The notes beneath the pieces are model-generated. The model made no database searches. It was not told the DNA's origin and saw nothing but the letters and a program-made list of their open reading frames with translations. A stretch of 64,000 nucleotides of DNA from Elusimicrobiales bacterium. GTDB lineage: Bacteria > Elusimicrobiota > Elusimicrobia > Elusimicrobiales > UBA9959. Where the stretch lies: the NCBI GenBank assembly GCA_023701245.1, contig JAMPXK010000006.1, forward strand, positions 3,152 through 67,151, given 5' to 3'. Both the position numbers and the translations under genes were made by a program. This document shows, in pieces, positions 5,200 to 42,049 of this stretch (position 1 is its first letter; each line of letters begins with the position of its first letter).

Positions 5200-5217
5200 C
5201 TATAATCTAATACGCAT

Positions 5218-9877: not shown

Positions 9878-9895
9878 AGTAGTCCTTTCCTCGGG

Positions 9896-10023: not shown

Positions 10024-10029
10024 ACCCCT

Positions 10030-11022: not shown

Positions 11023-11039
11023 ATTTGGCCCGGCCCGGG

Positions 11040-11067
11040 CCCCCCTTCCGCAAAGGGTTCGCGGGGG
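11040..11067. repeat. Partial type-2 element (shares 26 of 27 aligned nt with the 3' part of the 16386-16479 element)
   Basis: cccccc-ttccgcaaagggt-t-cgcggggg here versus ccccccc-ttccgcaaagggt-g-cgcgggg at about 16439-16466. Lies in the 70-nt hydG-hydE gap. Confidence 0.7.
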
Positions 11068-11092
11068 AGCGCCACTGACAGCCCGCTGTTAT

Positions 11093-12571
11093 TCAGAAGC
11101 ATAGGTCCCGCTCGCCGCCTTCTATCCTTTTGTAGTAGGTTTCCAAAAGCTTCAGGGTCTCCGGAGGGAAATGCGCTCCGCGGTCGCGGATCTCGTTGAT
11201 CTCGCGGCGGATCAGCGCTTCGCCTTTGGCCCTGGTGGCTTCGGAGGCGAAGTCGTCGAGCCATTCGCGGTAGGTGAGCACGGCGTTGAGCTTGCAGAAG
11301 CGGCTTTCATGCCCGCTCTTGAGCAGTTTCATGATGTGGTCGCCGGTGCGGCCGCAGCGGTAGCCGGAGGCGCAGAAGGAGGTGATGTGGCCCAGGTCGG
11401 CCAGCTCGCCTATCACCTCGTCGAGGGAGCGGGTGTCGCCCAGGATGAACTGCTGTTTCTCGGCTTCCTGCGCGCCGGCGCGCTCGGAGTAGGCGCCTAT
11501 GCCTATGCGGGTGCTGGCGTCGCGCTGGGTGCACATGCCTATGACCTCGCGGATGGTCTCCGGGCGCTCGCGGGCGGTGACTATCATGCCGGCGTAGGGG
11601 ACGGCCAGGCGCAGTACGGCCACCAGCTTCTTGAAATCGGCGTCGGAAACGTTGCGGAGGCTGGCCTCGGGCAGGCTGGTGCCGTCGGCGTTCTCCAGGC
11701 GCGGGAAAGAGATGGTATGCGGGCCGACGCCGAAGCGCGCTTCCAGTTCGCGCGCGTGCGCTACCAGGCCCAGCACTTCGAATTTCCAGTCGGGGTTGAG
11801 GCCGAAGAGGGCGCCCAGGGCCACGTCGTCTATGCCGGCGGCGAAGGCCCGGTGCATGACGTAGAGGCGCCAGCGGTAGTCGGCTTTGGGGGTGCCGCCG
11901 GGATGAAGTCTGGCGTAGAGCTCCCGGTCGTAGGTTTCCTGGAAGACCTGGTAGGTGCCGAGGCCGGCGGCCTTGAGCAGCTTCAGGTCCTCGACGTTCA
12001 TGGGGGCGGCGTTGACGTTGACGCGGCGTATCTGGCCGAAGCCCTTGCGGGTGGGCACTTTGACGGCGTAGATGGTCTTCATGGCCTCGGCTATGTACTG
12101 CGCGCCGGTGGCGGGATGTTCGCCGGTGACGAAGATGAGGCGCTTATGGCCTATGCGCCCGGCGAGGGCTTCGGCCTCGGACCGGATCTCTTCCATGGAG
12201 AGTTTGCGGCGCACGGCCCCGGCGTTGCCGGTGCGGAAGCCGCAGTAGAGGCAGTTGTTGACGCAGAAGTTGGAGGCGTAGAGCGGGGCGAAGGTGATGA
12301 CGCGGTTGTCGTAGACCTTGCGCTTGACATCGCGGGCGGCCTGGTAGATCTCTTCGAGCAGGCCGGGGTCGGTGACGGCCAGGAGCGCCGCGGCGTCTTC
12401 GGGCGGGAGGGCCTCGGAGACGGCGAGCGAACGGGCGAGGATCTCGCGGACGCGGTCGGCCGAAGGGGCCGGGGCGGCGAGCGCCGCTTTCAGCGCTTTA
12501 TCGTCTATGAAGTCTTTGCCGTCTTTGAGGTAGTCTGCGTAGGTGTCTGCGTTAACGGTCACGGTTTGCAT
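11093..12571 (-). CDS. hydG: [FeFe] hydrogenase maturase HydG (radical SAM tyrosine lyase)
   Basis: Radical-SAM CVNNCLYCGF, ThiH-like body, C-terminal Cys triad. Start moved to ATG 12571 (MQTVTVN, GGAGA SD); the longer ORF reads into repeat element F. Confidence 0.88.
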   Translation of the reverse strand: MQTVTVNADTYADYLKDGKDFIDDKALKAALAAPAPSADRVREILARSLAVSEALPPEDAAALLAVTDPGLLEEIYQAARDVKRKVYDNRVITFAPLYASNFCVNNCLYCGFRTGNAGAVRRKLSMEEIRSEAEALAGRIGHKRLIFVTGEHPATGAQYIAEAMKTIYAVKVPTRKGFGQIRRVNVNAAPMNVEDLKLLKAAGLGTYQVFQETYDRELYARLHPGGTPKADYRWRLYVMHRAFAAGIDDVALGALFGLNPDWKFEVLGLVAHARELEARFGVGPHTISFPRLENADGTSLPEASLRNVSDADFKKLVAVLRLAVPYAGMIVTARERPETIREVIGMCTQRDASTRIGIGAYSERAGAQEAEKQQFILGDTRSLDEVIGELADLGHITSFCASGYRCGRTGDHIMKLLKSGHESRFCKLNAVLTYREWLDDFASEATRAKGEALIRREINEIRDRGAHFPPETLKLLETYYKRIEGGERDLCF

Positions 12572-12597
12572 AAGGTCTCCTTGGTTCGGGGCCGCCA

Positions 12598-12698
12598 GGG
12601 TGTTACCCTGGGCCCCACACCCGGGGAACCGTTGCGCGGTTCCCCCGTCCCTTACGGGACGGGTCCCCCTCCCCAAGTGGGGCGTGCGGGTAACACCC
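12598..12698. repeat. Type-2 nested-hairpin intergenic element (copy F)
   Basis: Outer stems GGGTGTTACCC/GGGTAACACCC and GCCCCAC/GTGGGGC enclose hairpins GGGGAACC[gttgcgc]GGTTCCCC and CGTCCC[ttac]GGGACG. Confidence 0.85.
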
Positions 12699-14314: not shown

Positions 14315-16348
14315 TCATTTGCCCGCGGTCTCCGCTTTCATCTTGATCGCCCCGGCGTCGCGCGCCACGCGGGGCAGTTTTACCGTAAAGGTGGTGCCCG
14401 TCGGGCCCTTGGCCGGGTCGGAGTTGCTCTCTACCGCGATGCTGCCGCGGTGCACTTTGATGATGCCGTAAGAGACCGCCAGCCCCAGGCCGGTCCCCTT
14501 GCCTATCTGCTTGGTGGTGAAGAAAGGCTCGAAGATCTTCTTGGCATTCTCCGGCTTTATGCCGCAGCCGGTGTCCGAAACGCTGAAGCAGACGCTTTCG
14601 CGCTCGGGGAAGGTGCGGATGGTGAGCGCGCCGGCGCCGCCCATGGCTTCCAGGGCGTTGGTCACCAGGTTGGTAAGCACCTGGATTATCTGGTCGGGGT
14701 CCATCTCGGCCTGCAGGTCCTCGCCGGAGCGGTCCACGGTCAGCTTCAGCGTGGCCGGGACCGACGCCGTCTTGAAATAGTTGTCGATGAGGCGTACCAG
14801 GCTGGTCTGGCGGAAGAACGGCTTGTTCTTGCGGGCGAAGTTGAGCAGCCCGCCCACGATCTTCTTGCAACGGTCGGCCTGCTCGGTTATCATCTTGGCG
14901 TCGGCGAAGACGCGGGTGTCCTTCTGGCACTGTTCGGCCAGCAGGTGGGCGTAGAGCAGCACCACGCCGAGCGGGTTGTTGAGCTCATGGGCCACTCCGG
15001 CGGCCAGCTGGCCCATGCTGGCGAGCTTTTCCGACTGCATCAGGGCCTGCTTGGTCTTGGCCAGCTGGTTGTAGGAGACCGTCAGTTCGTCGGCGGTGGT
15101 CTTGAGCCGGTCTATGGTGTAGGGGAGGCACATTTCGCTTTCGGCTATGCCGCGGATGATGGCCACGGCGTGCTCCACGCAGGTGGGGTAGCCGCAGGCG
15201 CCGCAGTTCAGTTCGTCCTCCGGCCTGGTCTTGCCCATCTTGGCCAGGACGGCCTTGAGCTCCTCGCCGGCCGGCAGTTTCATGCGCCGGTCCTCGGCTT
15301 CGAAGGAGGCGCCGTAGTTCAGGCCGCGGAAGCGGCGCACGCTCTCTTCCCAGTCGTTGAGGCGGATGCTGAAATAGCTTTTGCGGGCGTAGCGGCGCAG
15401 GGCGGCCTCGCGCGCGTGCTTGGAGGACTTTACGCTGATGCCGGGGCCCATGATGCAGCCGTTGCAGCAGAGCAGGTCTATGAAATCGGCGTCGATGTCT
15501 CCGTGCTCCATGTTCTTGAGCACTTCCGGGAAGTTCTCCAGCCCTTCCGAAGAGAGGAAGCGGCCGCTCAGCAGGTCCTCTTCGAGTTCGGCGGAGTTGA
15601 GCAGGCCGCCGCCCATGGGGTAGAGCACGCCCTTGGCGGGATGCGGCGGGTCGAACTGGGCGTCCAGGGCGCTGTTGCGGTCCACGCCGGCGTCCTTGAG
15701 GATGGTGCGCAGCTCCACGAAGGTTATGGATTCCGCTATGTCGGCCAGGTTGCGGGCGGTCTCTTCCTTCTTGGCCACGCACGGCCCGATGAAGACCACT
15801 TTTACTTCGGGACCGTACATGTCGTGTATGACCCGGGCCTCGGCCACCATGGGGGAGACTATGGGCGCGAGGCTGCCCACCAGGGCCGGGTGGTATTTTT
15901 CCACGAAGGAGACCACTGCGGGGCAGGCGGTGCTGATGAATTTTTTGCCGGGGTTCTCGTTGATGAGCTTGCGGTACTGCAGGGAGACCATGTCCGCGCC
16001 GAAGGCCACTTCGCAGACATGTTTGAAGCCGAGGGCCTTTAACATGCCGGCGAACCGCAGGGGGTCTATCCCGCCGAATTCAACGGGGAAACTTGGGGCC
16101 AGGGCGGCGGCGACGGGCGCGCCGCTCTTGAGGAGGGCTTTTACGGCGCGGATGGAGTCCAGGGTCTCTTTGGCGCCGCGGCTGCACATGAGCACGCAGT
16201 TGGCGCAGCCTATGCAGCGCTCCTTTATGACCTCGGCCTGGCCGCCGGAGATGCGGATGGCCTTGGCGGGGCAGCCGCGCACGCAGGTATAGCACGCCTT
16301 GCAGCGTTCTTTGATGGTCCTTACTAGTGGCTCGCTATCGGGTGTCAT
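14315..16348 (-). CDS. Sensory [FeFe]-hydrogenase-like protein fused to a histidine kinase
   Basis: Contains a 2x[4Fe-4S] ferredoxin motif. The H-cluster-domain motifs are altered: STACP, GPCVAKKEE, LLCCNGCIMGPG. A CX2CX4CX16C motif (CGACGYPTC...C) follows, then H-box VAHELNNPL and HATPase_c. Start set to ATG 16348 (MTPDSEP). Confidence 0.85.
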   Translation of the reverse strand: MTPDSEPLVRTIKERCKACYTCVRGCPAKAIRISGGQAEVIKERCIGCANCVLMCSRGAKETLDSIRAVKALLKSGAPVAAALAPSFPVEFGGIDPLRFAGMLKALGFKHVCEVAFGADMVSLQYRKLINENPGKKFISTACPAVVSFVEKYHPALVGSLAPIVSPMVAEARVIHDMYGPEVKVVFIGPCVAKKEETARNLADIAESITFVELRTILKDAGVDRNSALDAQFDPPHPAKGVLYPMGGGLLNSAELEEDLLSGRFLSSEGLENFPEVLKNMEHGDIDADFIDLLCCNGCIMGPGISVKSSKHAREAALRRYARKSYFSIRLNDWEESVRRFRGLNYGASFEAEDRRMKLPAGEELKAVLAKMGKTRPEDELNCGACGYPTCVEHAVAIIRGIAESEMCLPYTIDRLKTTADELTVSYNQLAKTKQALMQSEKLASMGQLAAGVAHELNNPLGVVLLYAHLLAEQCQKDTRVFADAKMITEQADRCKKIVGGLLNFARKNKPFFRQTSLVRLIDNYFKTASVPATLKLTVDRSGEDLQAEMDPDQIIQVLTNLVTNALEAMGGAGALTIRTFPERESVCFSVSDTGCGIKPENAKKIFEPFFTTKQIGKGTGLGLAVSYGIIKVHRGSIAVESNSDPAKGPTGTTFTVKLPRVARDAGAIKMKAETAGK

Positions 16349-16385
16349 AATCGTTGTCTGACTTAAGTCCTGAGCTATTAGTGGC

Positions 16386-16479
16386 GCCCGGGATATTGCC
16401 CCACGCACCCTGGAAGATGGAAACCCTTGCGTCGGTTTCCCCCCCTTCCGCAAAGGGTGCGCGGGGCAATATCCCGGGC
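16386..16479. repeat. Type-2 nested-hairpin intergenic element (copy D)
   Basis: 25-bp arms with one mismatch (16386-16410 / 16455-16479) enclose GGAAACC[cttgcgtc]GGTTTCC and CCCTT[ccgca]AAGGG hairpins. Lies between the hydA stop and the sensor-kinase start. Confidence 0.88.
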
Positions 16480-31127: not shown

Positions 31128-32555
31128 ATGGTCCGGGACGTCATCATCATAGGGGCCGGTATAAGCGGCGCGGCCATAGCCCGGGAGCTTTCCCGCTACC
31201 GGCTCAAGGTGCTTCTTCTGGAGAAGGAGGCCGAGCCGGCCTTCGGCGTTTCCAAATCCAACAGCGGCATCATCCACGCCGGCACGCAGAACCCGCCGTC
31301 TTCCCTTAAAGGCTGGCTGTGCGTGGAAGGCAACCGCCTGCTGCGCGAGGAACTCGCCGCGGACCTGGGACTCCATTTCGTGCAGTGCGGCCAGCTGATA
31401 GTCGTTTTCGACCTGGCGGACCTGCCGGAACTGGATAAGATCAAGGCCGAAGGCGAGGCCCTGGGCGTAAAAGGCCTGGAAATAGTGGACCGCGCCTGGC
31501 TGGACGCCAGGGAGCCCAATCTCGGCCCCGAAGTAAAGGCGGCGCTCTACGTTCCCAGCGCCGGCATCATAAGCCCCTACCGCTTCGTTTACGCCCTGGT
31601 GGAGAACGCCGTGCGCAACGGTGTCCGCCTGGAAACTTCCTCCAGGGTGACCGCGGTAAGGCGCCGCCCCGAAGGTTTCGAGGTGGTCGCCGGCGGCCAG
31701 GTTTTCCGTTCCAGGTTCGTGGTCAACGCCGCCGGCCTCTACGCGGACGAAGTCTCCGCCATGGCGGGAGCCCCGACCTTTAAGATAACGCCGCGCAAGG
31801 GCGAAGAGTACCTGCTCGATAAGAAGCGCGAGCATATCGCCAACCATATTATTTTCCCCCTGCCTTCGAAGACGTCCAAAGGCATTCTCATAATCAAGAC
31901 CTCGGACGGGAACCCGATGATAGGTCCCACCGCGCACGAGACGCCGGACAAAGAGGACCTGGCCACCACCGACGCGGGGCTGGCCGAGGTGCTGGCCGGC
32001 GCCCGGCGTATGATGCCCTCACTCGACCGGTCCGACATCATCGCCTACTTCGCCGGCCTGCGGCCGGCCTCCGGCAAGGACTTCATCATCCGTCACGAAG
32101 ACGCCGTGCCCGGGCTGGTGAACGTGGCCGGGATCCAATCCCCCGGCCTGACCTCCGCGCCGGCTATCGCGGTGATGGTGGCCGGCCTGCTGAAGGAGCG
32201 CGGCCTGCCCCTGACGCCGAAAGAAGAATTCCACCGCCTGCGCCCGCGCCCCGTGCACCTCTTCCAGGTGCCGTTGGAGGAGACGGCGCGGCTGATAGAG
32301 AAAGATCCCTCCTACGGCGACATAGTCTGCCGCTGCGAACTCGTCTCTGCGCAGGAGGTGCGCGACGCTATCAGGCGCGGCGCCCGCACCCTCGACGGCG
32401 TAAAGTTCCGCACCAGGGCGCAGTCCGGCCGCTGCCACGGCGGATTCTGCACCACGCGCATCATCAAACTCATGCAGGAAGAACTGGGCCTGCCCGTTAC
32501 CGCCGTCTCCAAGCGCGGCCCCGGGTCCGAACTCATAAAGGACGAACGCAAATGA
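31128..32555 (+). CDS. FAD-dependent oxidoreductase, GlpA-like (glycerol-3-phosphate dehydrogenase family) with BFD-like [2Fe-2S] domain
   Basis: Dinucleotide fold VIIIGAGISGAA. C-terminal CRCELVS...GRCHGGFC. Followed by the usual second flavoprotein and a DUF1667 gene. Confidence 0.75.
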   Translation: MVRDVIIIGAGISGAAIARELSRYRLKVLLLEKEAEPAFGVSKSNSGIIHAGTQNPPSSLKGWLCVEGNRLLREELAADLGLHFVQCGQLIVVFDLADLPELDKIKAEGEALGVKGLEIVDRAWLDAREPNLGPEVKAALYVPSAGIISPYRFVYALVENAVRNGVRLETSSRVTAVRRRPEGFEVVAGGQVFRSRFVVNAAGLYADEVSAMAGAPTFKITPRKGEEYLLDKKREHIANHIIFPLPSKTSKGILIIKTSDGNPMIGPTAHETPDKEDLATTDAGLAEVLAGARRMMPSLDRSDIIAYFAGLRPASGKDFIIRHEDAVPGLVNVAGIQSPGLTSAPAIAVMVAGLLKERGLPLTPKEEFHRLRPRPVHLFQVPLEETARLIEKDPSYGDIVCRCELVSAQEVRDAIRRGARTLDGVKFRTRAQSGRCHGGFCTTRIIKLMQEELGLPVTAVSKRGPGSELIKDERK

Positions 32556-32629
32556 ACCCTATCTATCTCCGGCACGGCAGTTCCAGGACCCGCAGGTTCC
32601 TGCGCGGGAACTAGGCGGCGCTTCGCACT

Positions 32630-33610
32630 ATGAAAGAGAGGCAACTGGTGGTGGTAGGAGGCGGCCCGGCGGGCATGGCGGCGGCGCTGGCGGCCAGGGA
32701 GGCCGGCGTCGCCGACGTGCTGCTGCTGGAACGCGACCAGCACCTGGGCGGCATCCTTAACCAGTGCATCCATCCCGGTTTCGGGCTGCATCATTTCAAG
32801 GAAGAGCTTACGGGCCCGGAATACGCGGACCGCTTCGCCGCGCGCGTCCTGGCGGATCCCGGTATAGAGGTCCGCCTTAAGTCTTTCGCCGTAAAGCTTA
32901 CCCCGGACCGCCGGATCTCTTTCCTGCGCCCCGGAGCCCTGGAGGAAGTGCAGGCCGGGGCCGTGGTGCTGGCCACCGGCTGCCGGGAACGCACCCGCGA
33001 GATGATCCCCATCCCGGGTACGCGGCCCGCCGGGGTCTACCCCGCCGGCCTCGCCCAGAAGATGGTGAATATGGAAGGCTGGATCCCGGGCCGCGAGGCG
33101 GTCATCGTGGGGTCGGGGGATATCGGCCTTATAATGGCCCGCCGCATGGCGCTGGAAGGCGTCCTGGTGAAGGCCGTCATCGAGATACAGAAGAGCAGCC
33201 GCGGGCTCGTGCGCAACGTCGTGCAGTGCCTGGAAGATTTCGGGATCCCGCTGTATTTCCAGCACCGTATCTCCATGGTACGCGGCCGGGACCGCGTAGA
33301 GAGCGTGGACGTGGTGCGCGTGGACGACGAGTTCAGGGATATCCCCGGCTCGGACTTTTCCCTCTCCTGCGACACGGTCCTGGTCTCCGTCGGCCTGATC
33401 CCGGAGAACGAACTGCTGGAGATGGCCGGGGCCCTGATAGACCGCAAGACCAACACCCCCGTGGCTCCCGACGTGAACCTTACTTCCCTGCCCGGCATCT
33501 TCGCCTGCGGCAACGCCTGCAAGGTCTATGACCTGGCCGACTGGGTCACCCGCGACAGCCAGCTGGCCGGGCGCATGGCCGCCAGATACCTGGGAGTTGC
33601 CGACCTATGA
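32630..33610 (+). CDS. Pyridine nucleotide-disulfide-type FAD/NAD(P) oxidoreductase
   Basis: VVVGGGPAGMAAA and VIVGSGDIGL dinucleotide motifs. Overlaps the DUF1667 gene start by 4 nt. Confidence 0.75.
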   Translation: MKERQLVVVGGGPAGMAAALAAREAGVADVLLLERDQHLGGILNQCIHPGFGLHHFKEELTGPEYADRFAARVLADPGIEVRLKSFAVKLTPDRRISFLRPGALEEVQAGAVVLATGCRERTREMIPIPGTRPAGVYPAGLAQKMVNMEGWIPGREAVIVGSGDIGLIMARRMALEGVLVKAVIEIQKSSRGLVRNVVQCLEDFGIPLYFQHRISMVRGRDRVESVDVVRVDDEFRDIPGSDFSLSCDTVLVSVGLIPENELLEMAGALIDRKTNTPVAPDVNLTSLPGIFACGNACKVYDLADWVTRDSQLAGRMAARYLGVADL

Positions 33611-33969
33611 AACGCAGAATGACCTGCATAGAGTGTCCCCAGGGCTGCAGTCTCGAAGTGGAGGCCGACGGTTCCCGCTTTATCGGCGTCACCGGCTATA
33701 AGTGCCGGCGCGGCGGCGCCTACGCCAGGCAGGAGACCGAAGCTCCACTGCGCACCCTGACCACCTCGGTGCTGACCAGCGGCCTGGAGCTCAAGATGCT
33801 GCCGGTCCGCACTTCCCGGCCCATTCCGAAGGCCAGGCTGTTCGAGGCGATGGCGGCCGTCAAGCTCATCGTAGTGACTTCTCCGGTCAAGGCAGGCGCC
33901 GTTATCGCGCCCGACTTCCTTGGCCTGGGCGTGGACCTTGTGGCCTGCCGCCCCCTGCTTAAAAAATGA
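33607..33969 (+). CDS. DUF1667-domain protein
   Basis: 120 aa. [12 protein letters not shown]...YKCRRG N-terminal Cys pattern typical of DUF1667 partners of GlpA-like flavoproteins. Confidence 0.7.
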
Positions 33970-34472
33970 GACACCGCCTGGTAATTTTTCTGCTGTCAGG
34001 GTTGGCCGCCTGCGCGCCGGCCCCGGAGGCTCCCATGGACGAAAAACTTAAAAAGCTGACGCCCCTGCAGTACGAGGTGACGCGCAACTGCGGCACGGAG
34101 CCGCCGTTCAAGAACGAATATTGGGATAACCACAGGGCCGGGATCTACGTGGACGTGATCAGCGGCGAGCCGCTCTTCCTGTCCTCGGACAAGTTCGACT
34201 CCGGTTCCGGCTGGCCCAGCTTCACGCGCCCGGTCCCCGGCGCCAAGGTGCAGGAGCGCCGCGACGTCTCGCTGGGAATGGAAAGGACGGAGGTGCGCTC
34301 CGGGTCCAGCGACTCCCACCTGGGTCACGTCTTCCCCGACGGACCCGGCCCCGGCGGGCTGCGCTACTGCGTCAATTCCGCCGCGCTGCGTTTCGTGGCG
34401 CTGGAGGATATGGAGAAAGAAGGCTACGGGCAATACATCCCCCAGGTCAAGGCCGCCAGCCAGGGGAATTAA
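33966..34472 (+). CDS. msrB: Peptide-methionine (R)-S-oxide reductase MsrB, lipoprotein form
   Basis: Lipobox LAAC, GWPSF, HLGHVF and catalytic RYCVNS motifs. The two zinc CxxC pairs are absent. Confidence 0.85.
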
Positions 34473-34642
34473 GTCTCTTCGCGGAACCAGCTTTCCTTGC
34501 CGTAAAGCTCGTGCATGCAGTCCTTGCAAAGCCCGTGCGTAAAGCGCGCGGCCGAATGCTTTTCCAGGTAAGTCTCCACTTTCTGCCAGAACCCCTTGTC
34601 GTCCAGGACGCTTTTACCTCTGGCGCAGAGTTTCGGCGGTCT
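34469..34642 (-). pseudogene. Remnant of a paralog of the C-terminal Cys/His module of 24995-25684
   Basis: Open frame without a start codon encodes ..[54 protein letters not shown]. By eye about three quarters of nt match 24995-25150. An upstream ATG (34679) is in another frame and stops after 21 codons. Confidence 0.7.
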
Positions 34643-34723: not shown

Positions 34724-34752
34724 TTGACACATGCCGCCATATTTTTTACATT
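34724..34752 (+). promoter_or_regulatory. Candidate promoter for the Ehr-type operon
   Basis: TTGACA (34724-29), 17 nt, TACATT (34747-52), within a local low-GC patch about 80 nt upstream of ATG 34832. Confidence 0.35.
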
Positions 34753-34831: not shown

Positions 34832-36799
34832 ATGCCGCTCTTCCTGCTTTCCTTTCTCCTGCTGCTTTGCGGCGCCGCGCTGCCGCTTTTGCTGTGGCGG
34901 CGCCCGCTCGCGGCCCAGCGCTCCGCGGTCTGCTGCGCCGTGGCCGCTTCCGCGGTGGGTCTGGTTCCCGTCCTGCGCGTGCTCTTTACCGGGGTGCCCG
35001 CTTCCTTTTCCTTCCCCTGGTCCGTCCCCCTGGCCTCTTTCTCGCTGCTGCTGGACCCGCTTTCCGCTCTTTTCGCGGTTCCCCTGCTCCTGCTTACCGG
35101 CCTGGCGGCGGTGTACGGCGCCGGGTATCTGGCGGCCTGCGCGGGCAAAAAACCGCTGGCCCTGGCCTGGGCCGCTTTCAACCTCCTTACCGCCTCCATG
35201 CTGCTGGTTTTTTCGGCGGCTAACGCCGTGCTCTTCCTGCTAGGCTGGGAACTCATGGCGGCGGCTTCCTTTCTCTTGGTGCTTTTCGAGCATGAGCGCG
35301 AGCAGGCCCGCAAAGCCGGCTTTATCTACCTGGCGGCGGGCGGTACCGGCGCCCTGCTGCTGCTGGGCCTTTTTCTGCTCCTGGGAGCGGGCGCGCCCTC
35401 CATGGATTTTTCGGATTTCAGGGTTCCCTCCGGCGGCGCGGCGACGGCCGCTTTTCTGCTTGCCCTCGGTGGCTTCGGCCTTAAGGCCGGCTTCATCCCG
35501 CTCCATGTCTGGCTGCCCGAGGCCCACCCGGCCGCCCCCAGTCATGTTTCGGCGGTAATGAGCGGCATCATGATAAAGACGGGGCTCTATGGCATCATCC
35601 GGGTGCTTGGCCTGCTGAAGCCCTGGCCGGAATGGTGGGGCTGGCTGCTGCTCGGTCTCGGCCTGGTTTCCTGCCTTGGCGGCGCCTTGTTCGCCCTGGC
35701 CCAGCACGAACTCAAACGGGTCCTGGCGTATTCCAGCATAGAGAACGTCGGCATTATCCTGCTGGCGCTCGGCCTCGGCGTGGTTGCGGCGGCCTGCGGC
35801 GCGCATCAACTGGCTTCGCTGGCTTTTGCCGGCGCCCTGCTGCACGTTTTCAACCACGCCCTTTTCAAGGGGCTGCTCTTTATGGGCGCCGGGGCCGTCC
35901 TGCACGGCACTGGTACCGGAGAGTTGGAGGCCCTTGGCGGCCTTTCCAAACGCATGCCCGCGGCCGCGGCTTTCTTCATGGCCGGCTCCGCGGCGGCCTG
36001 CGCGCTGCCCCCCCTAAACGGCTTTGCCGGGGAGTTCCTTGTTTACCTGGGAGCTTTGCGGGCGCTCAATTCCCCGGGGTCCGTCGCGCTGGCCGGCGTG
36101 CTGGCCGGGCTGGCCCTGGCGGCCGCCGGCGCCGTGGCCGCGGCCGCTTTCACCCGGGCCGCGGGTACCGCTTTCCTGGGCGAGCCGCGCACCGAGCGCG
36201 CCGCCGGGGCTCACGCGCCGGGGCCGCTCATGGCCGTTCCCATGTTCCTGCTGGCGCTGCTCTGCCTGCTGTCCGGGCTGGCCGCGCCGCTGCTGCTCGG
36301 CCCTCTTTCCGCAGCCGTAAGCGCGGGGTTCGGAGGTTATTACGGTTTTGCGGCCGGCCTGGAAGCCATGGGCCCGTTCCTGTATATTTCCGCGGCCGCT
36401 CTCTGCCTGCTGGGGCTTATAGCTCTGGCCGCGGCCAAGCGCCGGGCTTTCCTGGGCGGGCGGCAGCCGGCTTCAGGGGTGACCTGGGACTGCGGCTATG
36501 CCGCCCCGACGGCGCGAATGCAGTACGGGGCTTCTTCTTTCGCGCAGCCGCTCACGGATTTCTTCCAGCCGCTCCTGCGTAAACTGGGGCAGTACCCGGT
36601 CATTTCCGAATATTTCCCGGCCAAGGCTTCTTTCTCCACCGAGGCCCAGGCGGTTTTTTATAATTCGGTCTATACCCCCGCCGCGGTGCGCCTGCGCGAC
36701 CTGGCCTACAGGTTCAGCTGGCTGCAGCACGGCCGGTTGCAGCTTTACATCATGTATATCGTCGTCACGCTTATAGGGCTCCTGCTATGGAAATTGTAA
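34832..36799 (+). CDS. NuoL/HyfB-like antiporter-type membrane subunit (EhrA-like)
   Basis: 655 aa, highly hydrophobic. Motifs GWELMAAASFLLV, HVWLPEAHPAAPSHVSA and AYSSIENVG are typical of Mrp/NuoL-type subunits. Confidence 0.8.
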   Translation: MPLFLLSFLLLLCGAALPLLLWRRPLAAQRSAVCCAVAASAVGLVPVLRVLFTGVPASFSFPWSVPLASFSLLLDPLSALFAVPLLLLTGLAAVYGAGYLAACAGKKPLALAWAAFNLLTASMLLVFSAANAVLFLLGWELMAAASFLLVLFEHEREQARKAGFIYLAAGGTGALLLLGLFLLLGAGAPSMDFSDFRVPSGGAATAAFLLALGGFGLKAGFIPLHVWLPEAHPAAPSHVSAVMSGIMIKTGLYGIIRVLGLLKPWPEWWGWLLLGLGLVSCLGGALFALAQHELKRVLAYSSIENVGIILLALGLGVVAAACGAHQLASLAFAGALLHVFNHALFKGLLFMGAGAVLHGTGTGELEALGGLSKRMPAAAAFFMAGSAAACALPPLNGFAGEFLVYLGALRALNSPGSVALAGVLAGLALAAAGAVAAAAFTRAAGTAFLGEPRTERAAGAHAPGPLMAVPMFLLALLCLLSGLAAPLLLGPLSAAVSAGFGGYYGFAAGLEAMGPFLYISAAALCLLGLIALAAAKRRAFLGGRQPASGVTWDCGYAAPTARMQYGASSFAQPLTDFFQPLLRKLGQYPVISEYFPAKASFSTEAQAVFYNSVYTPAAVRLRDLAYRFSWLQHGRLQLYIMYIVVTLIGLLLWKL

Positions 36800-37704
36800 A
36801 GCCCTTCTGCCAGTACCTGGCCGCCATGACGCTGGCGCCGCTCCTGCCCGGCATAGTCAACCGGGTGAAGGCCTTTTTCGCCGGCCGCCGCGGCCAGCCC
36901 GTGCTGCAGCTCTACTTCGATCTCTACAAGCTGCTGAATAAGACGCCGGTCTACAGCCGTACCGCCACCTGGGTCTTCCGCGCCGGGCCGGTGGCGGGCG
37001 TCAGTGCCCTGGTCATGGCCCTCCTCCTGCTGCCTTTCGCCGGCCGCCCCTCCTTCCTCTCTTTCGAAGGCGATTTTATTTTCCTGATCTACCTGCTGGG
37101 CCTGGCCAGGTTCGCCACGGTGCTGGCCGCCCTGGATACCGGGTCCGCTTTCGAAGGGATGGGCGCCAGCCGCGAGATGCAGTTCGCCGTCTTCGCGGAG
37201 CCGGCCTTTTTCCTGGGGCTGGCGGCCCTGGTCAGGGTGAGCGGCCAGACCTCGCTGGCCGGCATCTTCGGCGCGCTTACGCCGGAGACGTGGCGTCAGG
37301 CGGCGCCGGTGCTGGCCTTGCTTACGGCTTCTTTTTTTATAGTCCTCCTGGCCGAGAATTCCAGGGTGCCGGCCGACGACCCCAACACGCACCTGGAACT
37401 TACCATGATACACGAGGTGATGGTGCTGGACCACAGCGGGCCGGACCTGGCCTATATCCTTTACGGGGCGGCCCTGAAACTGTGGCTGTTCGCGGCGCTG
37501 ATAGCCTGCATGGTGCTGCCGCGCCACAGCGGGTCCTGGGCCGCAGACGCGGGGCTGTTCCTGCTGGTCATGGCCGGCGTGGCCGCGGCCGTAGGGATAG
37601 TGGAATCTGTGATGGCCAGGCTGAGGCTGACCAAGGTGCCGTATATGCTGATAACGGCTTTCGCGTTCTCGGCGCTGGCGCTGATCTTCCAGATGGGCAG
37701 ATAA
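36787..37704 (+). CDS. NuoH/HycD-like membrane subunit (EhrB-like)
   Basis: 305 aa. N-terminal RVKAFFAGRRGQPVLQ and PADDPNTHLELTMIHEV resemble formate-hydrogenlyase subunit 4/HyfC. Confidence 0.78.
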   Translation: MEIVKPFCQYLAAMTLAPLLPGIVNRVKAFFAGRRGQPVLQLYFDLYKLLNKTPVYSRTATWVFRAGPVAGVSALVMALLLLPFAGRPSFLSFEGDFIFLIYLLGLARFATVLAALDTGSAFEGMGASREMQFAVFAEPAFFLGLAALVRVSGQTSLAGIFGALTPETWRQAAPVLALLTASFFIVLLAENSRVPADDPNTHLELTMIHEVMVLDHSGPDLAYILYGAALKLWLFAALIACMVLPRHSGSWAADAGLFLLVMAGVAAAVGIVESVMARLRLTKVPYMLITAFAFSALALIFQMGR

Positions 37705-37705
37705 T

Positions 37706-38371
37706 ATGCACACTTTCGCCGAACTCATGATCGTTCTGATAATACTGCTGGACATGGCGCTGGCCGTTACGGGCTCGCTTTCGTCCTGTATCCGCCTTGT
37801 GGCGGCCCAGGGCGTGGTGGCGGGCCTGCTGCCGCTGCTGGCCGCCGGCGGCGCGACGCATACCCGGGCGCTGGTCTTTGCCGCCGTCATCATCACGCTC
37901 AAGGGGGTTGTTTTCCCCTGGCTGCTGCTGCGGGCGAGGGACCGGTCGGGGGCGCGCAAGGACGTGGAGCCCCTGATCAGCTACCCCGCCTCCATTCTGC
38001 TCTGCCTGGGCGCGTTCATAGCCTCGTCCTGGCTGGGCTCGCGCCTGCCGCTGCCCGAAAGCGGCGTGGCGTGGACGGTGCCGGCCTCGCTCGCCACGAT
38101 CTTCACCGGGTTCCTGCTCATCACCACGCGCAGCAAAGCCATAACGCAGGTGCTGGGGTACCTGGTCATAGAGAACGGCATCTACATTTTCGGCCTGGCG
38201 CTGTTCGTGGAGCAGCCCATGCTGGTGGAACTGGCCATCCTGCTCGACGTCTTCGTCGCAGTTTTCGTGATGGGCATAGCCATCTTCCACATCAGCCGCG
38301 AATTCGACCACATAGACACGGCGGAGCTTTCCGAACTGAACGACTGGCGCCGCGGGGAGTACGGCAAATGA
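37706..38371 (+). CDS. HyfE-like small membrane subunit (EhrC-like)
   Basis: 221 aa. VLGYLVIENGIYIFGLAL and LLDVFVAVFVMG are typical of HyfE/hydrogenase-4 component E. Confidence 0.75.
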   Translation: MHTFAELMIVLIILLDMALAVTGSLSSCIRLVAAQGVVAGLLPLLAAGGATHTRALVFAAVIITLKGVVFPWLLLRARDRSGARKDVEPLISYPASILLCLGAFIASSWLGSRLPLPESGVAWTVPASLATIFTGFLLITTRSKAITQVLGYLVIENGIYIFGLALFVEQPMLVELAILLDVFVAVFVMGIAIFHISREFDHIDTAELSELNDWRRGEYGK

Positions 38372-39867
38372 TCCTGCCCCTGCTGCTGCTGCCGTTCTGC
38401 GCCGGGCTGCTGGCCTTTATCGTCCGCGAAGACCGCCTGCGCCGCGGCCTCCTGGTCTGGACCTCGCGGATGCATTTCTTTTTCACCGCGCTCCAGGTCT
38501 GGGGACAGCTCTCAGGCATCCATGGTTTCACGCCGCTCCAGGCCCTGCAGGGCGGCGCCGCGCCAGCCTGGTTCGCTTTCGACGCGCTCGGCCTGTTGTT
38601 CCTGGGTATTACGTCGCTGCTGTTCCTGGGCGCCTCCCATTACGCCTCGTATTACCTGGCGGCCGAGAAGCGCGATCCCGGCGAGGACGCCGAAGGGCTG
38701 TTCGTCTTCAACAACGCGCCGGAGGCGGTGTTCACCGGCTGCCTGCTGCTTTTCCTGGCCGCCATGACGGCGGTCACGGCCAGCCGCCACATGGGCCTGT
38801 TGTGGGCCGCCGTGGAGGCCACCACGCTGCTGAGCGCGCCGCTCATCTATTTCCACCGGCATAAACGTTCGCTGGAGGCCACCTGGAAATACCTGCTGAT
38901 CTGCTCCGTGGGGATAGCGCTGGCCCTTATGGGCAACATGTTCCTGGGGGCCGCCGGCCTGAAGGCCGGCGGAGGCCTGGAGCTGGGAGGCCTGCTGGCC
39001 GGCGCGGGCGGCCTGGACAAGCCGCTGCTCAAGGCGGCGTTCCTGTTCCTGTTCGTGGGCTATGGCACCAAGATGGGCCTCTCCCCCTTCCACACCTGGC
39101 TGCCGGACGCGCACAGCGAGGCGCCGGCGGTGGTTTCCGCGCTGCTTTCAGGCGCCCTGCTCAACTGCGCCTTCCTGGGGATACTTCGCGTCAACTCCGT
39201 CTGTGCCGCGGCCGGGCTGGCTGACTTCACCGGCGGGATACTTGCGCTTTTCGGCTTGTTCTCCGTGGTTACGGCCGCGCTGTTCATGCTGGGGCAGCGG
39301 GACTACAAGCGCATGCTGGCCTACTCCAGCATAGAGCATATGGGCATACTTTCTTTAGGCGCCGGCCTGGGCGGCGCGGCCATGTTCGGCGCCCTGCTGG
39401 GCGCCCTCAGCCATTCCCTGGCCAAGGCGGGGCTCTTCTTCACTTCCGGCAACGTGCTGGCCGCGGAGAAGACCAAGCGCATTTCCGAAGTGCGCGGGCT
39501 CTGGCGGCGGGCGCCTCGCACGGCGGCCCTCTGGCTGGCCGGCTTCTTCCTGATAACCGGCCTGCCCCCTTCCGGCGTCTTTCTCTCCAAGTTCCTCATC
39601 CTGAGGGAAACTTTCGAGCGGGGGCAGTACTGGCTCGCCGGGACTTTGCTGTTCTTCCTCGCGGTGCTGTTCGCGGGGATGGCCAAGGTGTTCATTTCCA
39701 TGGTCTTCGGGCCGCGGGAAGAAAAGGAGGGCGGCAAGCCCTTTACGGAGCCGGGCGCCATGCTGCTGCCGGCGCTGCTTTTCTTCCTGCTGGTGATCGG
39801 CCTGGGGCTCTATCTGCCCGCCTGGCTCGGCGGCCTGCTGGACGCGGCTGCGGGAGGCGGCTTATGA
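38368..39867 (+). CDS. NuoM/N/HyfF-like antiporter-type membrane subunit (EhrD-like)
   Basis: Start ATG 38368 overlaps the upstream stop (ATGA). Motifs PFHTWLPDAHSEAPAVVSALLSG and AYSSIEHMG. The longer ORF-track start (38071) is rejected. Confidence 0.8.
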   Translation: MILPLLLLPFCAGLLAFIVREDRLRRGLLVWTSRMHFFFTALQVWGQLSGIHGFTPLQALQGGAAPAWFAFDALGLLFLGITSLLFLGASHYASYYLAAEKRDPGEDAEGLFVFNNAPEAVFTGCLLLFLAAMTAVTASRHMGLLWAAVEATTLLSAPLIYFHRHKRSLEATWKYLLICSVGIALALMGNMFLGAAGLKAGGGLELGGLLAGAGGLDKPLLKAAFLFLFVGYGTKMGLSPFHTWLPDAHSEAPAVVSALLSGALLNCAFLGILRVNSVCAAAGLADFTGGILALFGLFSVVTAALFMLGQRDYKRMLAYSSIEHMGILSLGAGLGGAAMFGALLGALSHSLAKAGLFFTSGNVLAAEKTKRISEVRGLWRRAPRTAALWLAGFFLITGLPPSGVFLSKFLILRETFERGQYWLAGTLLFFLAVLFAGMAKVFISMVFGPREEKEGGKPFTEPGAMLLPALLFFLLVIGLGLYLPAWLGGLLDAAAGGGL

Positions 39868-41315
39868 GGACCGACCCCCTTTCCGCCTTCAATTTCCCGG
39901 CGTCCGACATGGAGCCGGCGCTGTTCTTCGAGACCGCGGCTTCTCGGCTGGCGGCCGGAGGCAGGACGCTGGCCTATTTCGCCCTGCCGGAGGGCGGCGG
40001 GTTCCGCCTGGTGATGGCGATAGGTTTCGACCGGGAGGGCCGCGTGGAGGTGTATTCCTCGCGGGTTTCCGGACCGTTCAGGGCGCTTACCCCCTCTTTC
40101 CCCCAGCTGCATCTTTTCGAAAGGGAGATCTATGAGCAGTCGGGGCTGAAGCCGGAAGGCCATCCCTGGCTTAAACCGATCCGCTTCAATACCCCGGGCG
40201 CGGTGCCCGGCGTAGCCGACTACTTCACCGTGCACGGCAGCCAGGTGCACGAAGTGGCGGTAGGCCCCGTCCACGCCGGGGTCATAGAGCCGGGGCATTT
40301 CCGTTTCCAGTGCCACGGGGAGCGGGTTTTCCACCTTGAGATCATGCTGGGCTACCAGCACCGGGGCGTTGAAAAACGCCTTTCCTCCGGGCCCGACGCG
40401 CGGGCTATCCATTACGCGGAAACTCTGGCCGGCGACACCACGGCCGGGCACGCCTGGGCTTACTGCGGCGCGCTGGAGGCCCTGTGCGGGGTCAACGTGC
40501 CGCCGCGGGCGCAGGTCCTGCGCGGGATAATGCTGGAACTGGAGCGCCTGGCCAACCATACCGGCGACCTGGGCGCCCTTGCCGGCGACGTGGCCTACCT
40601 GCCCACCGCCTCTTTCTGCGGCCGCCTGCGCGGGGATTTCCTGAACATGACGGCCCTGATCTGCGGCAACCGCTTCGGCCGCAACATGTTCCGCCCTGGC
40701 GGCGTTAATTTCGACCTGGACCCGGCGCTGGTGAAGGAGCTTAAGCTGCGCCTCGCCGCCGCCTTCCGCGACGTGGAGCGGGCCGCGGCCCTGCTCTGGG
40801 ACACCGGGTCCGTGGCCGACAGGTTCGAGGGTACCGGCGTGGTCTCAAAAGAAGCGGCGGAAGGCCTGGGCCTGGTGGGACCGGCCGCGCGCGCCTCCGG
40901 CGTCGGGCTGGATACCCGCCGTAATTTTCCCTACGGGCCTTACGAAGGTTTTACCATGAGCGTTTCCGGCAGCGGGGACGTTTATTCCCGCGCCTATGTG
41001 CGCTGGCTGGAGATACAGAAGTCGGCCGAACTGGCAGCCGCCTGGCTGGAGGCCCTGCCGCAGGGCCCCCTGGCCGCCGACTGCGGAGAGCTCAGGCCCG
41101 ACAGCGGCGCGGTCTCCCTGGTGGAGGGCTGGCGCGGCCAGATCTGCCATTTCGCCCTGACCGGCGCCGACGGGCGGCTGCGGCATTACAAGGTGGCCGA
41201 TCCGTCCTTTCATAACTGGCAGGGGCTGGCGATGGCCCTGCGCGGCGCGGAGATCTCCGATTTCCCGCTCTGCAACAAGAGCTTCAACCTTTCCTACTGC
41301 GGGAGGGATTTGTGA
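39864..41315 (+). CDS. NuoC-NuoD/HycE-like large subunit lacking the [NiFe]-binding cysteines (EhrL-like)
   Basis: NuoC-like part (LFEREIYEQSGLKPEGHPWLKP) fused to a NuoD/HycE-like part (GPVHAGVIEPGHFRF). At the position of the N-terminal CxxC motif it reads LAGDTTAGH. The C-terminus is DFPLCNKSFNLSYCGRDL, not DPCxxCxxR. Confidence 0.8.
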   Translation: MRTDPLSAFNFPASDMEPALFFETAASRLAAGGRTLAYFALPEGGGFRLVMAIGFDREGRVEVYSSRVSGPFRALTPSFPQLHLFEREIYEQSGLKPEGHPWLKPIRFNTPGAVPGVADYFTVHGSQVHEVAVGPVHAGVIEPGHFRFQCHGERVFHLEIMLGYQHRGVEKRLSSGPDARAIHYAETLAGDTTAGHAWAYCGALEALCGVNVPPRAQVLRGIMLELERLANHTGDLGALAGDVAYLPTASFCGRLRGDFLNMTALICGNRFGRNMFRPGGVNFDLDPALVKELKLRLAAAFRDVERAAALLWDTGSVADRFEGTGVVSKEAAEGLGLVGPAARASGVGLDTRRNFPYGPYEGFTMSVSGSGDVYSRAYVRWLEIQKSAELAAAWLEALPQGPLAADCGELRPDSGAVSLVEGWRGQICHFALTGADGRLRHYKVADPSFHNWQGLAMALRGAEISDFPLCNKSFNLSYCGRDL

Positions 41316-42049
41316 TCAAGGCATTGTTCGCCCGCCTCAGGCAGGGCTACCGCACGGCGCCTTTCCCCTCACCGGAGCCGAAGCTGCCCCCGCGCTACCT
41401 GGGCCGCCCGGAACTGAGGTCCCCGAAGCTGGAAAAAGCGGCCGCGGCCTGCCCGTACGGCGCCATCGCCGCCGGAGAGGCGCCTTCGCTGGACCTGGGG
41501 CGCTGCGTTTTCTGCGGGCAATGCGCCGCGGCGGCGCCGGAGGCCGTTGTGTTCACCCGCGACTATAAACTTTGCGCCTCAAACCGCCAGGCGCTCGTTA
41601 TAAGCGGCCGGGACCTGGCCCGCGCGCAGGCGCTGGGCGCCCGGCTGCGCGGCCTGTTCGGGCGCTCGCTGCGCCTGCGCCAGGTGAGCGCCGGCGGCTG
41701 CGGCGCCTGCGAGGCGGACTGCAATGTCCTGGGCACCCTGGCTTTCGATATGGGGCGCTTCGGCATCCAGTTCGTGGCTTCGCCGCGCCACGCCGACGGG
41801 ATCCTGGTGACGGGGCCCGTGACGAAGAACATGGAACTCGCCCTGCGCAAGACTTACGACGCGGTGTCCTCCCCCAAAGTGGTCATAGCCTGCGGCTCCT
41901 GCGCCATCGCCGGCGGGCCTTACGCCGGGCACGAAGAATGCGCGGGCATCCCGGCCGACATCCCCGTGGACCTCTACCTGCCCGGCTGTCCTCCCCACCC
42001 CCTTACCATCCTCGACGGGCTCCTGCGCCTGCTCGGCCGCATAGCTTAG
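41312..42049 (+). CDS. NuoB/HycG-like small subunit with N-terminal one-cluster ferredoxin-like segment (EhrS-like)
   Basis: GGCGACEADC, GSCAIAGGPY and LPGCPPHP are the NuoB [4Fe-4S] ligand motifs. The N-terminal part has ..ACPYGAI.. and CVFCGQCAAAAP. Confidence 0.8.
   Translation: MIKALFARLRQGYRTAPFPSPEPKLPPRYLGRPELRSPKLEKAAAACPYGAIAAGEAPSLDLGRCVFCGQCAAAAPEAVVFTRDYKLCASNRQALVISGRDLARAQALGARLRGLFGRSLRLRQVSAGGCGACEADCNVLGTLAFDMGRFGIQFVASPRHADGILVTGPVTKNMELALRKTYDAVSSPKVVIACGSCAIAGGPYAGHEECAGIPADIPVDLYLPGCPPHPLTILDGLLRLLGRIA

Follow-up and report, generated by a model that had tools for sequence, protein, structure and literature searches.

The 64,000-nucleotide stretch of DNA analysed here (hereafter the window; contig JAMPXK010000006.1 of the Elusimicrobiales bacterium assembly GCA_023701245.1) carries at 34832-42049 a six-gene operon for an Ehr (energy-converting hydrogenase related) complex, which in this organism is very probably a redox-linked ion pump that does not act on H2. 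The six subunits, which make up a membrane arm and a peripheral arm, appear from their sequences to derive from a group 4 [NiFe] hydrogenase resembling Hyf, and since the Ni-Fe site has been lost, the complex is not a conventional hydrogenase. Ehr is said to have been named by Coppi in 2005 and generalised by Marreiros et al. in 2013. An initial annotation of this DNA had proposed an ehrABCDLS-type cluster as in Geobacter, and this identification is upheld by the gene order, the loss of the [NiFe] cysteines, relatives in Geobacteraceae whose large subunit (EhrL) is 52-59% identical to that of the window, and a subclade shared with them in a phylogenetic tree. It is by this gene order, the loss of the four [NiFe] cysteines and the kept NuoB-type cluster that the literature defines Ehr (PMC6349859, PMC10284858, PMC12342949). 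The window organism belongs to the groundwater Elusimicrobia of "lineage V", and a published study has already described Ehr in that lineage (bioRxiv 10.1101/765248); the locus is a further member of a known, uncharacterised family.

The operon consists of six ORFs (open reading frames) on the forward strand, whose coordinates stand as first called and whose GC content at third codon positions (0.78-0.87) is of the coding type. The HyfB/NuoL-like, antiporter-like membrane subunit is encoded by ehrA (34832-36799; 655 residues), a NuoH/HycD/HyfC-like membrane subunit by ehrB (36787-37704; 305 residues), and a HyfE-like membrane subunit with a NuoK-like C-terminal half by ehrC (37706-38371; 221 residues); ehrD (38368-39867; 499 residues when counted from the ATG at 38368 that overlaps the ehrC stop codon) specifies a HyfF/NuoM-N-like, antiporter-like subunit. 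The large subunit, a fused NuoC-NuoD/HycE-like protein without [NiFe] ligands, is the product of ehrL (39864-41315; 483 residues), and the small subunit that of ehrS (41312-42049; 245 residues), which has a GTG start and an N-terminus in agreement with its homologues. The first two genes overlap by 13 nt, ehrB and ehrC are separated by a single nucleotide, and the three remaining junctions are 4-nt overlaps. The ORF calls and all six Pfam and NCBIfam assignments agree with the order of families named in the initial annotation (HyfB/NuoL, NuoH/HycD, HyfE, HyfF/NuoM-N, NuoCD/HycE, NuoB/HycG) and with the abutting or overlapping arrangement described there. All six products score below the curated NCBIfam cut-offs, so none of them counts as orthologous to a curated family.

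EhrL matches the Pfam families Complex1_49kDa (E = 2.8e-36) and Complex1_30kDa (7.3e-5). When HMMER was run against chains of solved structures, the best score went to HycE (7z0s_E, 2.5e-42), followed by Nqo4 (1.4e-40) and MbhL (2.5e-36), with MbsL (3.7e-17) far behind; HycE, the best match in the PDB, is 26% identical to EhrL. The AlphaFold model of EhrL (mean predicted local distance difference test, pLDDT, 83.8; predicted template-modelling score 0.86) retrieved HycE as the best Foldseek match (template-modelling score 0.82) and E. coli NuoCD as the next, which confirms the fused NuoC-NuoD fold, and no structure closer than HycE was found by either the PDB sequence search or Foldseek. At the first ligand motif (L1), RxCGxCxxxH of the hydrogenases is replaced by LAGDTTAGH (40425-40451, EhrL residues 188-196): RVCGICGFAH of HycE is aligned with TLAGDTTAGH of EhrL, both cysteines being changed (to Ala and Thr), and the motif RMCGICSFSH of Pyrococcus furiosus MbhL (6cfw_L) gives an identical alignment. 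The loss of both N-terminal cysteines, as claimed in the initial annotation, is therefore sustained. Its reading of the C-terminus was right in that DPCxxCxxR is missing, but it has to be corrected as to the replacing string, because FPLCNKSF is upstream framework and the equivalent of the second motif (L2) is NLSYCGRDL (41286-41312, residues 475-483), the very end of the protein. When EhrL is aligned to HycE and HyfG by MAFFT, this string falls opposite DPCYSCTDR, again with both cysteines changed (to Ser and Gly).

Relative to HycE, HyfG and MbhL, the four Ni-Fe ligand positions of EhrL are thus occupied by A189, T192, S477 and G480, and correct gapping in the HMMER and MAFFT alignments restores no canonical cysteine. 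The single cysteine of the L2 equivalent, C479, stands one residue ahead of the second ligand position, and the protein ends three residues past G480, with no C-terminal extension for protease processing. Residues 466-483 of EhrL read DFPLCNKSFNLSYCGRDL, and the [NiFe]-retaining sisters of Ehr read FPLVNKSFNLCYSCTDR in the same region; as FPLxNKSF is common to these sisters, the framework has been inherited and the ligands alone have changed. Of the best 150 matches of a HMMER search of 1.84 billion cluster representatives, 94 were full-length and were analysed. Only four of these 94 representatives (of 50%-identity clusters) keep all four cysteines, two of the four clusters bearing source names, Desulfotomaculum and Planctomycetota. 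The others have [AS]-G-D-[TS] as their L1 motif and, C-terminally, S-Y-x-G-x-D-L, and D191, S477, G480 and D482 are nearly invariant across this distant set. Among the query and its 120 close homologues, G190, D191 and H196 are invariant and T192 is present in 118 of 121; ETLAGDTTxGH and SDFPLCNKSFNLSYCG[HR]DL are nearly invariant in the 120. The former Ni-Fe pocket has been rebuilt with the conserved polar residues D191, T192, H196, D242, S477 and D482, to which C201 and C479 are added in the query's subfamily, and the strong conservation of this replacement argues that EhrL is not a decayed enzyme.

In the small subunit EhrS, a ferredoxin domain of the HycF/NuoI kind (residues ~1-100) is fused to a HycG/NuoB-like domain (~120-245), as is evident both from domain matches (Pfam Oxidored_q6 at 1.9e-25 and Fer4_15; NCBIfam NuoI, HycF and HyfH on residues 1-102) and from alignments of residues 1-100 with HycF and HyfH and of 120-245 with HycG and HyfI. 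The initial annotation had stated that the small subunit keeps all four NuoB-type ligands, which the HycG/HyfI alignment corroborates, but the protein is not a plain NuoB homologue, given the fused ferredoxin domain. The ligands of the proximal NuoB/HycG-type [4Fe-4S] cluster, C130, C133, C197 and C226 (41699-41989), stand in columns invariant with HycG and HyfI and are conserved in 38-40 of 43 family members. A second set, the ferredoxin-type [4Fe-4S] ligands C47, C65, C68 and C71 (41450-41524), is invariant relative to HycF and HyfH and kept in 40-42 of the 43 sequences; C47 belongs to the Cys-Pro of the first motif, and the other three form the CxxCxxC of the second. These conserved ligands support a working redox chain. 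Both CxxCxxCxxxCP-type motifs, with eight cysteines in all, are kept in ~50 of 65 relatives. In the ferredoxin domain of the window (41312-41671), as in EhrS of Elusimicrobia GWC2 and of an Elusimicrobiaceae MAG (metagenome-assembled genome), motif 1 has its first three cysteines replaced and motif 2 its last one. In a two-cluster ferredoxin fold, the four lost cysteines make up precisely the ligand set of one cluster and the kept four that of the other, which we take to correspond to N6b of Nqo9, adjoining N2. The peripheral arm is accordingly predicted to be able to hold two [4Fe-4S] clusters here and three in most relatives. The coordinated loss is noted for loci L001, L009, L054 and L060, the last two being Geobacter loci, where it is apparently independent.

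In the membrane arm, EhrA (Pfam Proton_antipo_M, 4.8e-49; NCBIfam hydrogenase 4 subunit B, 1.9e-165, with 552 bits against a cut-off of 667) is 35% identical to E. coli HyfB, and EhrD (Proton_antipo_M, 8.9e-53; hydrogenase 4 subunit F, 5.2e-97, under the cut-off) is 37% identical to HyfF. Alignment with E. coli NuoL, NuoM and NuoN shows that both retain the Glu of transmembrane helix (TM) 5 and the Lys of TM7, together with a Lys/His in TM8 and the Glu of TM12 in EhrA and with a His/Lys in TM8 and the Lys of TM12 in EhrD, and the Lys/Glu/His chain for ion translocation is predicted to be intact in both antiporter-like subunits. EhrB (Pfam NADHdh, 4.5e-31) aligns with most acidic residues of HyfC, HycD and NuoH retained, and EhrC (NCBIfam hydrogenase 4 membrane subunit, 1.4e-17, under the cut-off; Pfam Oxidored_q2, 23.8 bits, marginally under the cut-off) shares with HyfE the membrane glutamates in VIENG and VELA. 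The conservation of the channel residues in EhrA and EhrD and of the acidic residues in EhrB and EhrC supports pumping. The TM5-6 loop of EhrB, DDPNTHLELTMIHE, has a 3-residue insertion that, in an alignment with HyfC, HycD and NuoH, is common to Ehr and Hyq only. In complex I, the TM5-6 loop of NuoH lines the quinone/coupling cavity. Across the alignment this loop (window 37330-37420) reads RVPADDPNTHLELTMIHEVMVLDHSG in Ehr and Hyq (the window and loci L002 and L008), K(I/L)PFDxAEAEQEL-QEG in HyfC/HycD and HPFDQPEAEQEL-ADG in NuoH; in six aligned sequences, three Cys-less and three from E. coli, the EhrB-type signature is confined to the Cys-less members.

The family is widespread. When a single genome from each GTDB species was scanned for pattern-matched stretches, at least 599 relatives were confirmed (599 of the 600 among those listed), usually six-gene operons in the same order, and the best 80 loci were examined for their neighbours. 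The best database match to the window EhrL is 88% identical, the exact sequence being absent from the records, and the source organism thus appears to be related, as a new species, to MAGs like Elusimicrobia GWC2_64_44. Identities among the 120 nearest proteins in the database range over 57-88%, with named sources in Elusimicrobia, Omnitrophota, Hydrogenedentota, Kiritimatiellae and Bryobacteraceae, and related operons with the order mostly kept occur in Elusimicrobia, Acidobacteriota, Omnitrophota, Variovorax and Meiothermus. Among the best 80 loci are those of Geomonas limicola (59%), a Geobacter sp. MAG (57%), Pelobacter and Geobacteraceae MAGs, Geothrix paludis and a Desulfovibrio isolate. 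The operon also resides on plasmids of cultured aerobes, namely Variovorax (44%), Allomeiothermus silvanus (42%), Cupriavidus, Paraburkholderia and Rhizobium; further hosts include soil aerobes, Planctomycetota, Verrucomicrobiota and candidate phyla, many Ehr hosts being obligate aerobes, and the literature adds Nitrospira and ammonia-oxidising archaea. Several Geobacterales loci, including those of the Pelobacter and Geobacteraceae MAGs, have two ehrA genes followed by B-C-D-L-S, as in the ehrA1A2BCDLS layout of Geobacter sulfurreducens GSU0739-45, where ehrA is likewise doubled (PMC7894505). A protein search seeded with the Geomonas sequence found the family throughout Geobacteraceae, the G. 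sulfurreducens entry not being among the matches listed, and orthology with the name-giving Geobacter cluster is judged via these other Geobacteraceae, not via the G. sulfurreducens sequence itself.

A neighbour-joining tree of the NuoD-like part (358 columns, 200 bootstrap replicates, corrected p-distances), which is crude and weakly supported in its deep order, places EhrL inside the radiation of Hyf-like hydrogenases and not with NuoD. HycE/HyfG stand apart from Ehr and its [NiFe]-retaining sisters in 185 of 200 replicates, a single clade (134/200) unites the Cys-less sequences, and the query falls into a crown clade of fused-type sequences (196/200) and, within it, into a subclade with Geobacterales (126/200). 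EhrL does not belong to a characterised Mbx or Nuo clade, as shown by this Cys-less clade and by the E-value of MbsL compared with that of HycE.

Four named systems come close without accommodating the operon. The closest solved and curated relatives are hydrogenase 4 (Hyf) and formate hydrogenlyase (Hyc; 7z0s) of E. coli, which have subunits homologous to all six of Ehr and the same hydrogenase-type beta1-beta2 loop in the large subunit; they possess, however, four Ni-Fe cysteines, a C-terminal processing peptide, the partners HyfA/HycB and FdhF and, in Hyf, HyfD, all of which are lacking here, and their HycF/HyfH and HycG/HyfI are separate proteins that in the window are fused into EhrS. Assignment to the Hyf/Hyc-type group 4 [NiFe] hydrogenases is rejected on account of the four absent ligands. 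Complex I and the ferredoxin-dependent NDH-1/Fpo-like complexes share with Ehr a Ni-free NuoD/NuoB/NuoH core, conserved antiporter channel residues and an Asp at the position of Nqo4 Asp139, and may also resemble it in the proposed principle, the transfer of electrons from ferredoxin to quinone with ion pumping. Ehr differs from complex I in having two antiporter-like subunits, no separate NuoA/J/K or NuoEFG and a different replacement of L1 and L2; respiratory complex I, with 11-14 subunits, three of them antiporter-like, and a separate NuoI, is not compatible with six genes and a fused NuoI-like domain. Mbx/MBS of Thermococcales (6u8y) is likewise a Ni-free descendant of group 4 hydrogenases coupling redox chemistry to ion translocation, but it has 13 subunits with an Mrp-type module, has lost Ni-Fe independently and gives the weakest hydrogenase-type match, so membership is rejected both on the architecture and on the score of MbsL (3.7e-17 versus 2.5e-42 for HycE).

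The fourth system is Hyq of Azorhizobium and Rhizobium (hyqRBCEFGI), a NifA-regulated, claimed H2:quinone oxidoreductase (PMC2650096). The cluster on Rhizobium pRL11 (R. johnstonii) has the order and content hyqBCEFGI described for the hyq operon of the Ludwig laboratory, and Hyq resembles the window operon in this six-gene order, in the fused Cys-less NuoC-NuoD subunit and in the EhrB-type loop. The large subunit of R. johnstonii Hyq reads TSGDSTVAY at L1 and NCSYSGHDL at L2. It is ~35% identical to the window EhrL and belongs to a separate subclade of the tree, and R. johnstonii HyqI is a plain NuoB homologue of 177 residues without a ferredoxin-like domain, whereas EhrS, with its 245 residues, is fused. 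Membership of the Hyq subfamily, which the gene order would allow, is therefore rejected, and the Hyq "endo-hydrogenase" is instead a Cys-less relative in another subclade. The Ehr clusters of Geobacteraceae are like that of the window in subunit set and order, in the Cys-less large subunit and in the ferredoxin-like domain fused into the small subunit; Geobacter-type clusters often have two ehrA copies where the window has one, most relatives have both ferredoxin-domain clusters where the Elusimicrobial version has one, and many possess an upstream regulator gene (see below) that the window lacks.

The initial annotation held that the substrate and electron partners of such complexes are unknown, and the literature up to 2025 agrees, describing the function of Ehr as unknown and a hydrogenase role as unlikely (PMC12342949, PMC10284858, PMC10432482). 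From the features above we infer that Ehr is most likely a reversible, ion-translocating oxidoreductase working at the level of ferredoxin and probably acting on quinone; the specific ferredoxin:quinone assignment is tentative, and we hold it with much less confidence than the non-H2 redox pump as such. Reduced ferredoxin is the most plausible soluble donor of low potential; the electrons would enter at the ferredoxin-like domain of EhrS and pass through the NuoB-type cluster to an acceptor in the rebuilt pocket, where EhrL, EhrS and EhrB meet, and a membrane quinone is the likeliest such acceptor. Charge changes at this pocket may then drive H+ or Na+ through EhrB, EhrC, EhrD and EhrA, by analogy with complex I and cyanobacterial NDH-1. 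Run in reverse, as might be the case in aerobes, nitrifiers and diazotrophs with Ehr or Hyq, the complex would use quinol and the ion gradient to reduce ferredoxin, and such reversibility could also account for the Ehr of nitrifiers, the rise on formate in Geobacter and the nitrogen-fixation phenotypes of Hyq. The lack of a recurrent gene for electron input or a dehydrogenase among the 80 loci suggests a diffusible donor and a stand-alone module. As for the acceptor, Tyr87, His38 and Asp139 of Thermus thermophilus Nqo4 are, we assume, quinone-site residues, and D242 of EhrL aligns with Asp139 and Y200 with Tyr87. D242 is nearly invariant in Ehr, whereas the position is Phe in HycE/HyfG and Gly in three of five [NiFe]-retaining sisters. 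The genomes of lineage V Elusimicrobia have genes for complex I, complex II and cytochrome bd (10.1101/765248), so a quinone pool is present; together with the quinone pools of the many obligately aerobic hosts, D242, Y200 and the dispensability of partner genes, this makes quinone the most likely acceptor.

Several observations weigh against this assignment. No purified, solved or biochemically studied Ehr complex was found in our literature and PDB searches, and with a best PDB match of only 26% identity every mechanistic step is inferred. The Tyr87 equivalent, Tyr200, is variable in the wider family (Y/F/H/C/W), the position of His38 is taken by Ile141 in an ungapped alignment, no equivalent of this histidine being found, and the beta1-beta2 loop of EhrL, GPVHAGVIEPGHFRF, is hydrogenase-like and not complex-I-like. 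In the AlphaFold model, pLDDT drops below 50 at residues 104-144 (this same loop) and 468-483 (the C-terminal motif), exactly the segments that form the pocket, so the model yields no pocket geometry. The distal Fe-S cluster, the expected docking point of ferredoxin, is missing in EhrS of the window. Finally, some Ehr hosts (Riflemargulisbacteria) reportedly have no quinone biosynthesis (PMC6349859), and the increase in Ehr that Geobacter shows on formate (PMC7894505) could indicate a different partner.

Other functions have been considered, among them that Ehr is still a hydrogenase, whose non-canonical EhrL site couples H2 oxidation or evolution to quinone as claimed for Hyq. Deletion of hyqBCEFGI, a cluster of the same order, from Azorhizobium caulinodans slows diazotrophic growth and alters H2 evolution (PMC2650096, PMC3357923); as R. 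johnstonii Hyq is Cys-less too, a Cys-less enzyme would be responsible for the published activity if that activity is direct, and E142 of the EP motif, the proton-transfer glutamate of the hydrogenase beta1-beta2 loop, is invariant. We nevertheless regard a hydrogenase as most improbable, given the loss of all four cofactor ligands and of the processing extension, the absence of Hyp ([NiFe] maturation) genes among the 46 window proteins scanned, and the dedicated [FeFe] hydrogenases that the organism already has; in addition, the catalytic site of HyqG was called speculative by the Hyq authors (PMC3357923), the Ehr of Nitrospira (N. moscoviensis) is not induced by H2 (PMC12342949), and the Hyq phenotypes may, in our view, stem from the supply of reductant to the H2-making nitrogenase. 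A formate-oxidising supercomplex, with Ehr as the membrane module of a formate dehydrogenase (FDH) in a Ni-free analogue of formate hydrogenlyase (FHL), has been proposed for Margulisbacteria and Saganbacteria (PMC6349859) and would suit both the finding that every Ehr subunit of G. sulfurreducens is more abundant on formate (PMC7894505) and the position of FHL as the closest solved relative. For the window it seems very unlikely: neither an FDH gene nor one for a connecting ferredoxin of the HycB/HyfA type lies around the operon there, neither is among the recurrent neighbours at the 80 loci, and the distal cluster expected to take up the electrons of the partner has been lost.

The pocket might instead serve an acceptor other than quinone, for instance polysulfide, another sulfur compound or a small molecule, reduced near the NuoB-type cluster with the aid of the subfamily cysteines, by analogy with MBS, which we take to be a Ni-free relative performing different chemistry. 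In the query's subfamily, conserved cysteines stand in or near the former active site, C479 between the L2 positions and C201 beside Tyr200; C150, C252, C267, C428 and C470 are conserved too, and C150, C470 and C479 occur together in 37 of the 94 representatives. These cysteines are absent, however, from large parts of Ehr including Hyq, so a family-wide function cannot be defined by them; among the solved hydrogenase-type large subunits MbsL is the remotest (3.7e-17), and no sulfur-metabolism genes recur beside the operon at the 80 loci. Mutual information (216 sequences, with average product correction), calculated to see whether C150, C470 and C479 form one site, does not link the cysteines either, but because its top partners mirror the splits between subfamilies it is uninformative on them; C150 and C470 may be neighbours across strands. 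On balance we consider a non-quinone acceptor unlikely, and an undescribed catalytic site in the EhrL pocket, with another metal or with thiol/carboxylate chemistry fed by the NuoB-type cluster, similarly doubtful. That the complex is a redox-inactive relic, acting only as a cation transporter, antiporter or scaffold, could be argued from the loss of the active-site metal and, here, of one Fe-S cluster, as well as from the P-type cation ATPases that two relatives have near the operon and from an EIIA(Ntr)-like regulator gene often upstream, yet the remaining ligand sets of EhrS are conserved (40-42 and 38-40 of 43) and the rebuilt pocket is conserved across phyla, a pattern unlike that of a decaying redox module, and this explanation is scarcely credible.

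Ehr is spread over a very wide range of genomes, yet its role has not been assigned in the literature. A reversible ferredoxin:quinone pump, if confirmed, would fill a gap in the supply of low-potential reductant of many aerobes and nitrifiers and would offer fermenters a route for the electrons of ferredoxin into respiration. Should the EhrL pocket host a new site instead, Ehr would amount to a large class of ion-pumping reductases that has been overlooked, or of Ni-free hydrogen-converting enzymes as the work on Hyq implies. The window locus itself adds little beyond one more member, the open question being one of the whole family. By-products of the analysis are a sharper signature of Ehr, the recognition of Hyq as a Cys-less relative, and the fused small subunit with its variably lost distal cluster. 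Culturable hosts are at hand in Geomonas limicola, Geothrix paludis, Allomeiothermus silvanus, Variovorax and Rhizobium.

The operon is preceded by a 360-nt gap after msrB, in which TTGACA-17-TACATT (34724-34752, + strand, ~80 nt 5' of ehrA; 10 of 12 consensus matches) is a candidate sigma-70-like promoter, a consensus match with no evidence of function. A 36-codon ORF at 34469-34579 on the reverse strand in the same gap may not be a gene. Further upstream (31128-34472, + strand) are genes for a GlpA-like FAD dehydrogenase that includes a [2Fe-2S] domain of the BFD type, a pyridine-nucleotide-disulfide oxidoreductase, a DUF1667 protein and MsrB; ehrS is followed by a gene for an unknown protein and one for an M3 peptidase. 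These flanking genes are common to the Elusimicrobia GWC2-like relative, which has one extra upstream gene of 77 residues, and the upstream set is absent in other phyla, the flanks not being conserved beyond close relatives. None of the 80 related loci revealed a recurrent FDH, NuoEF, Rnf or ferredoxin neighbour; the ORF calls behind this survey are crude (longest ORFs, with antisense shadows in high-GC loci), so neighbour counts are lower bounds. The sole recurrent neighbour is a gene for a ~235-residue protein with HTH_17 and PTS_EIIA_2 (EIIA-Ntr-like) domains, found on the same strand directly 5' of ehrA at 23 or more of the 80 loci in several phyla (L003, L010, L011, L016, L026, L031 and others) and absent from the window; its product is a candidate dedicated regulator of Ehr.

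The co-occurring soluble [FeFe] hydrogenase system pointed out in the initial annotation is indeed encoded in the window, on the reverse strand, and comprises HydF, two radical-SAM proteins, an HydS-like sensor-kinase, HydA, NuoF-like and NuoE-like proteins and Rex, that is, maturases, a trimeric HydABC-type hydrogenase and the HydS-like fusion. The genes for HydF and the two radical-SAM proteins, one of them with a BATS domain, lie together at 8627-12676 (- strand), and the two latter are read as HydE/HydG by position; upstream of these maturase genes, at 3125-4348 (+ strand), is a gene for a NUBPL/ApbC-type Fe-S carrier ATPase. The fusion protein (14315-16453, - strand; 712 residues) combines a ferredoxin-like 4Fe-4S domain, an Fe_hyd_lg_C H-domain, HisKA and HATPase_c and is a putative H2-sensing hydrogenase joined to a histidine kinase. 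Its gene adjoins those for HydA, the NuoF-like and NuoE-like proteins, Rex and response regulators. Both a hydrogenase-histidine kinase fusion and this [FeFe] arrangement have already been described for lineage V Elusimicrobia, whose genomes carry other [NiFe] hydrogenases as well (10.1101/765248). The Rex operator TGTGAA-N6-TTCACA, with up to two mismatches allowed, has no match anywhere in the window, so no link of ehr to the neighbouring Rex regulon is shown.

Some related loci have features of their own. Genes for P-type cation ATPases are located a few kb 3' of ehr in a Bryobacteraceae locus (L002, 16845-19862) and an Omnitrophota locus (L003, 14565-17276), the latter also with Trk potassium-uptake genes 5' of ehr; the proximity of ATPase and Trk genes may be a coincidence. 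Plasmid 3 of Variovorax sp. PBL-E5 (L006) carries two paralogous clusters of the six-gene type 3.4 kb apart (3890-11174 and from 14586 onward), one with a fused small subunit of 249 residues like that of the window and the other annotated as hyfB/hydrogenase-4-like.

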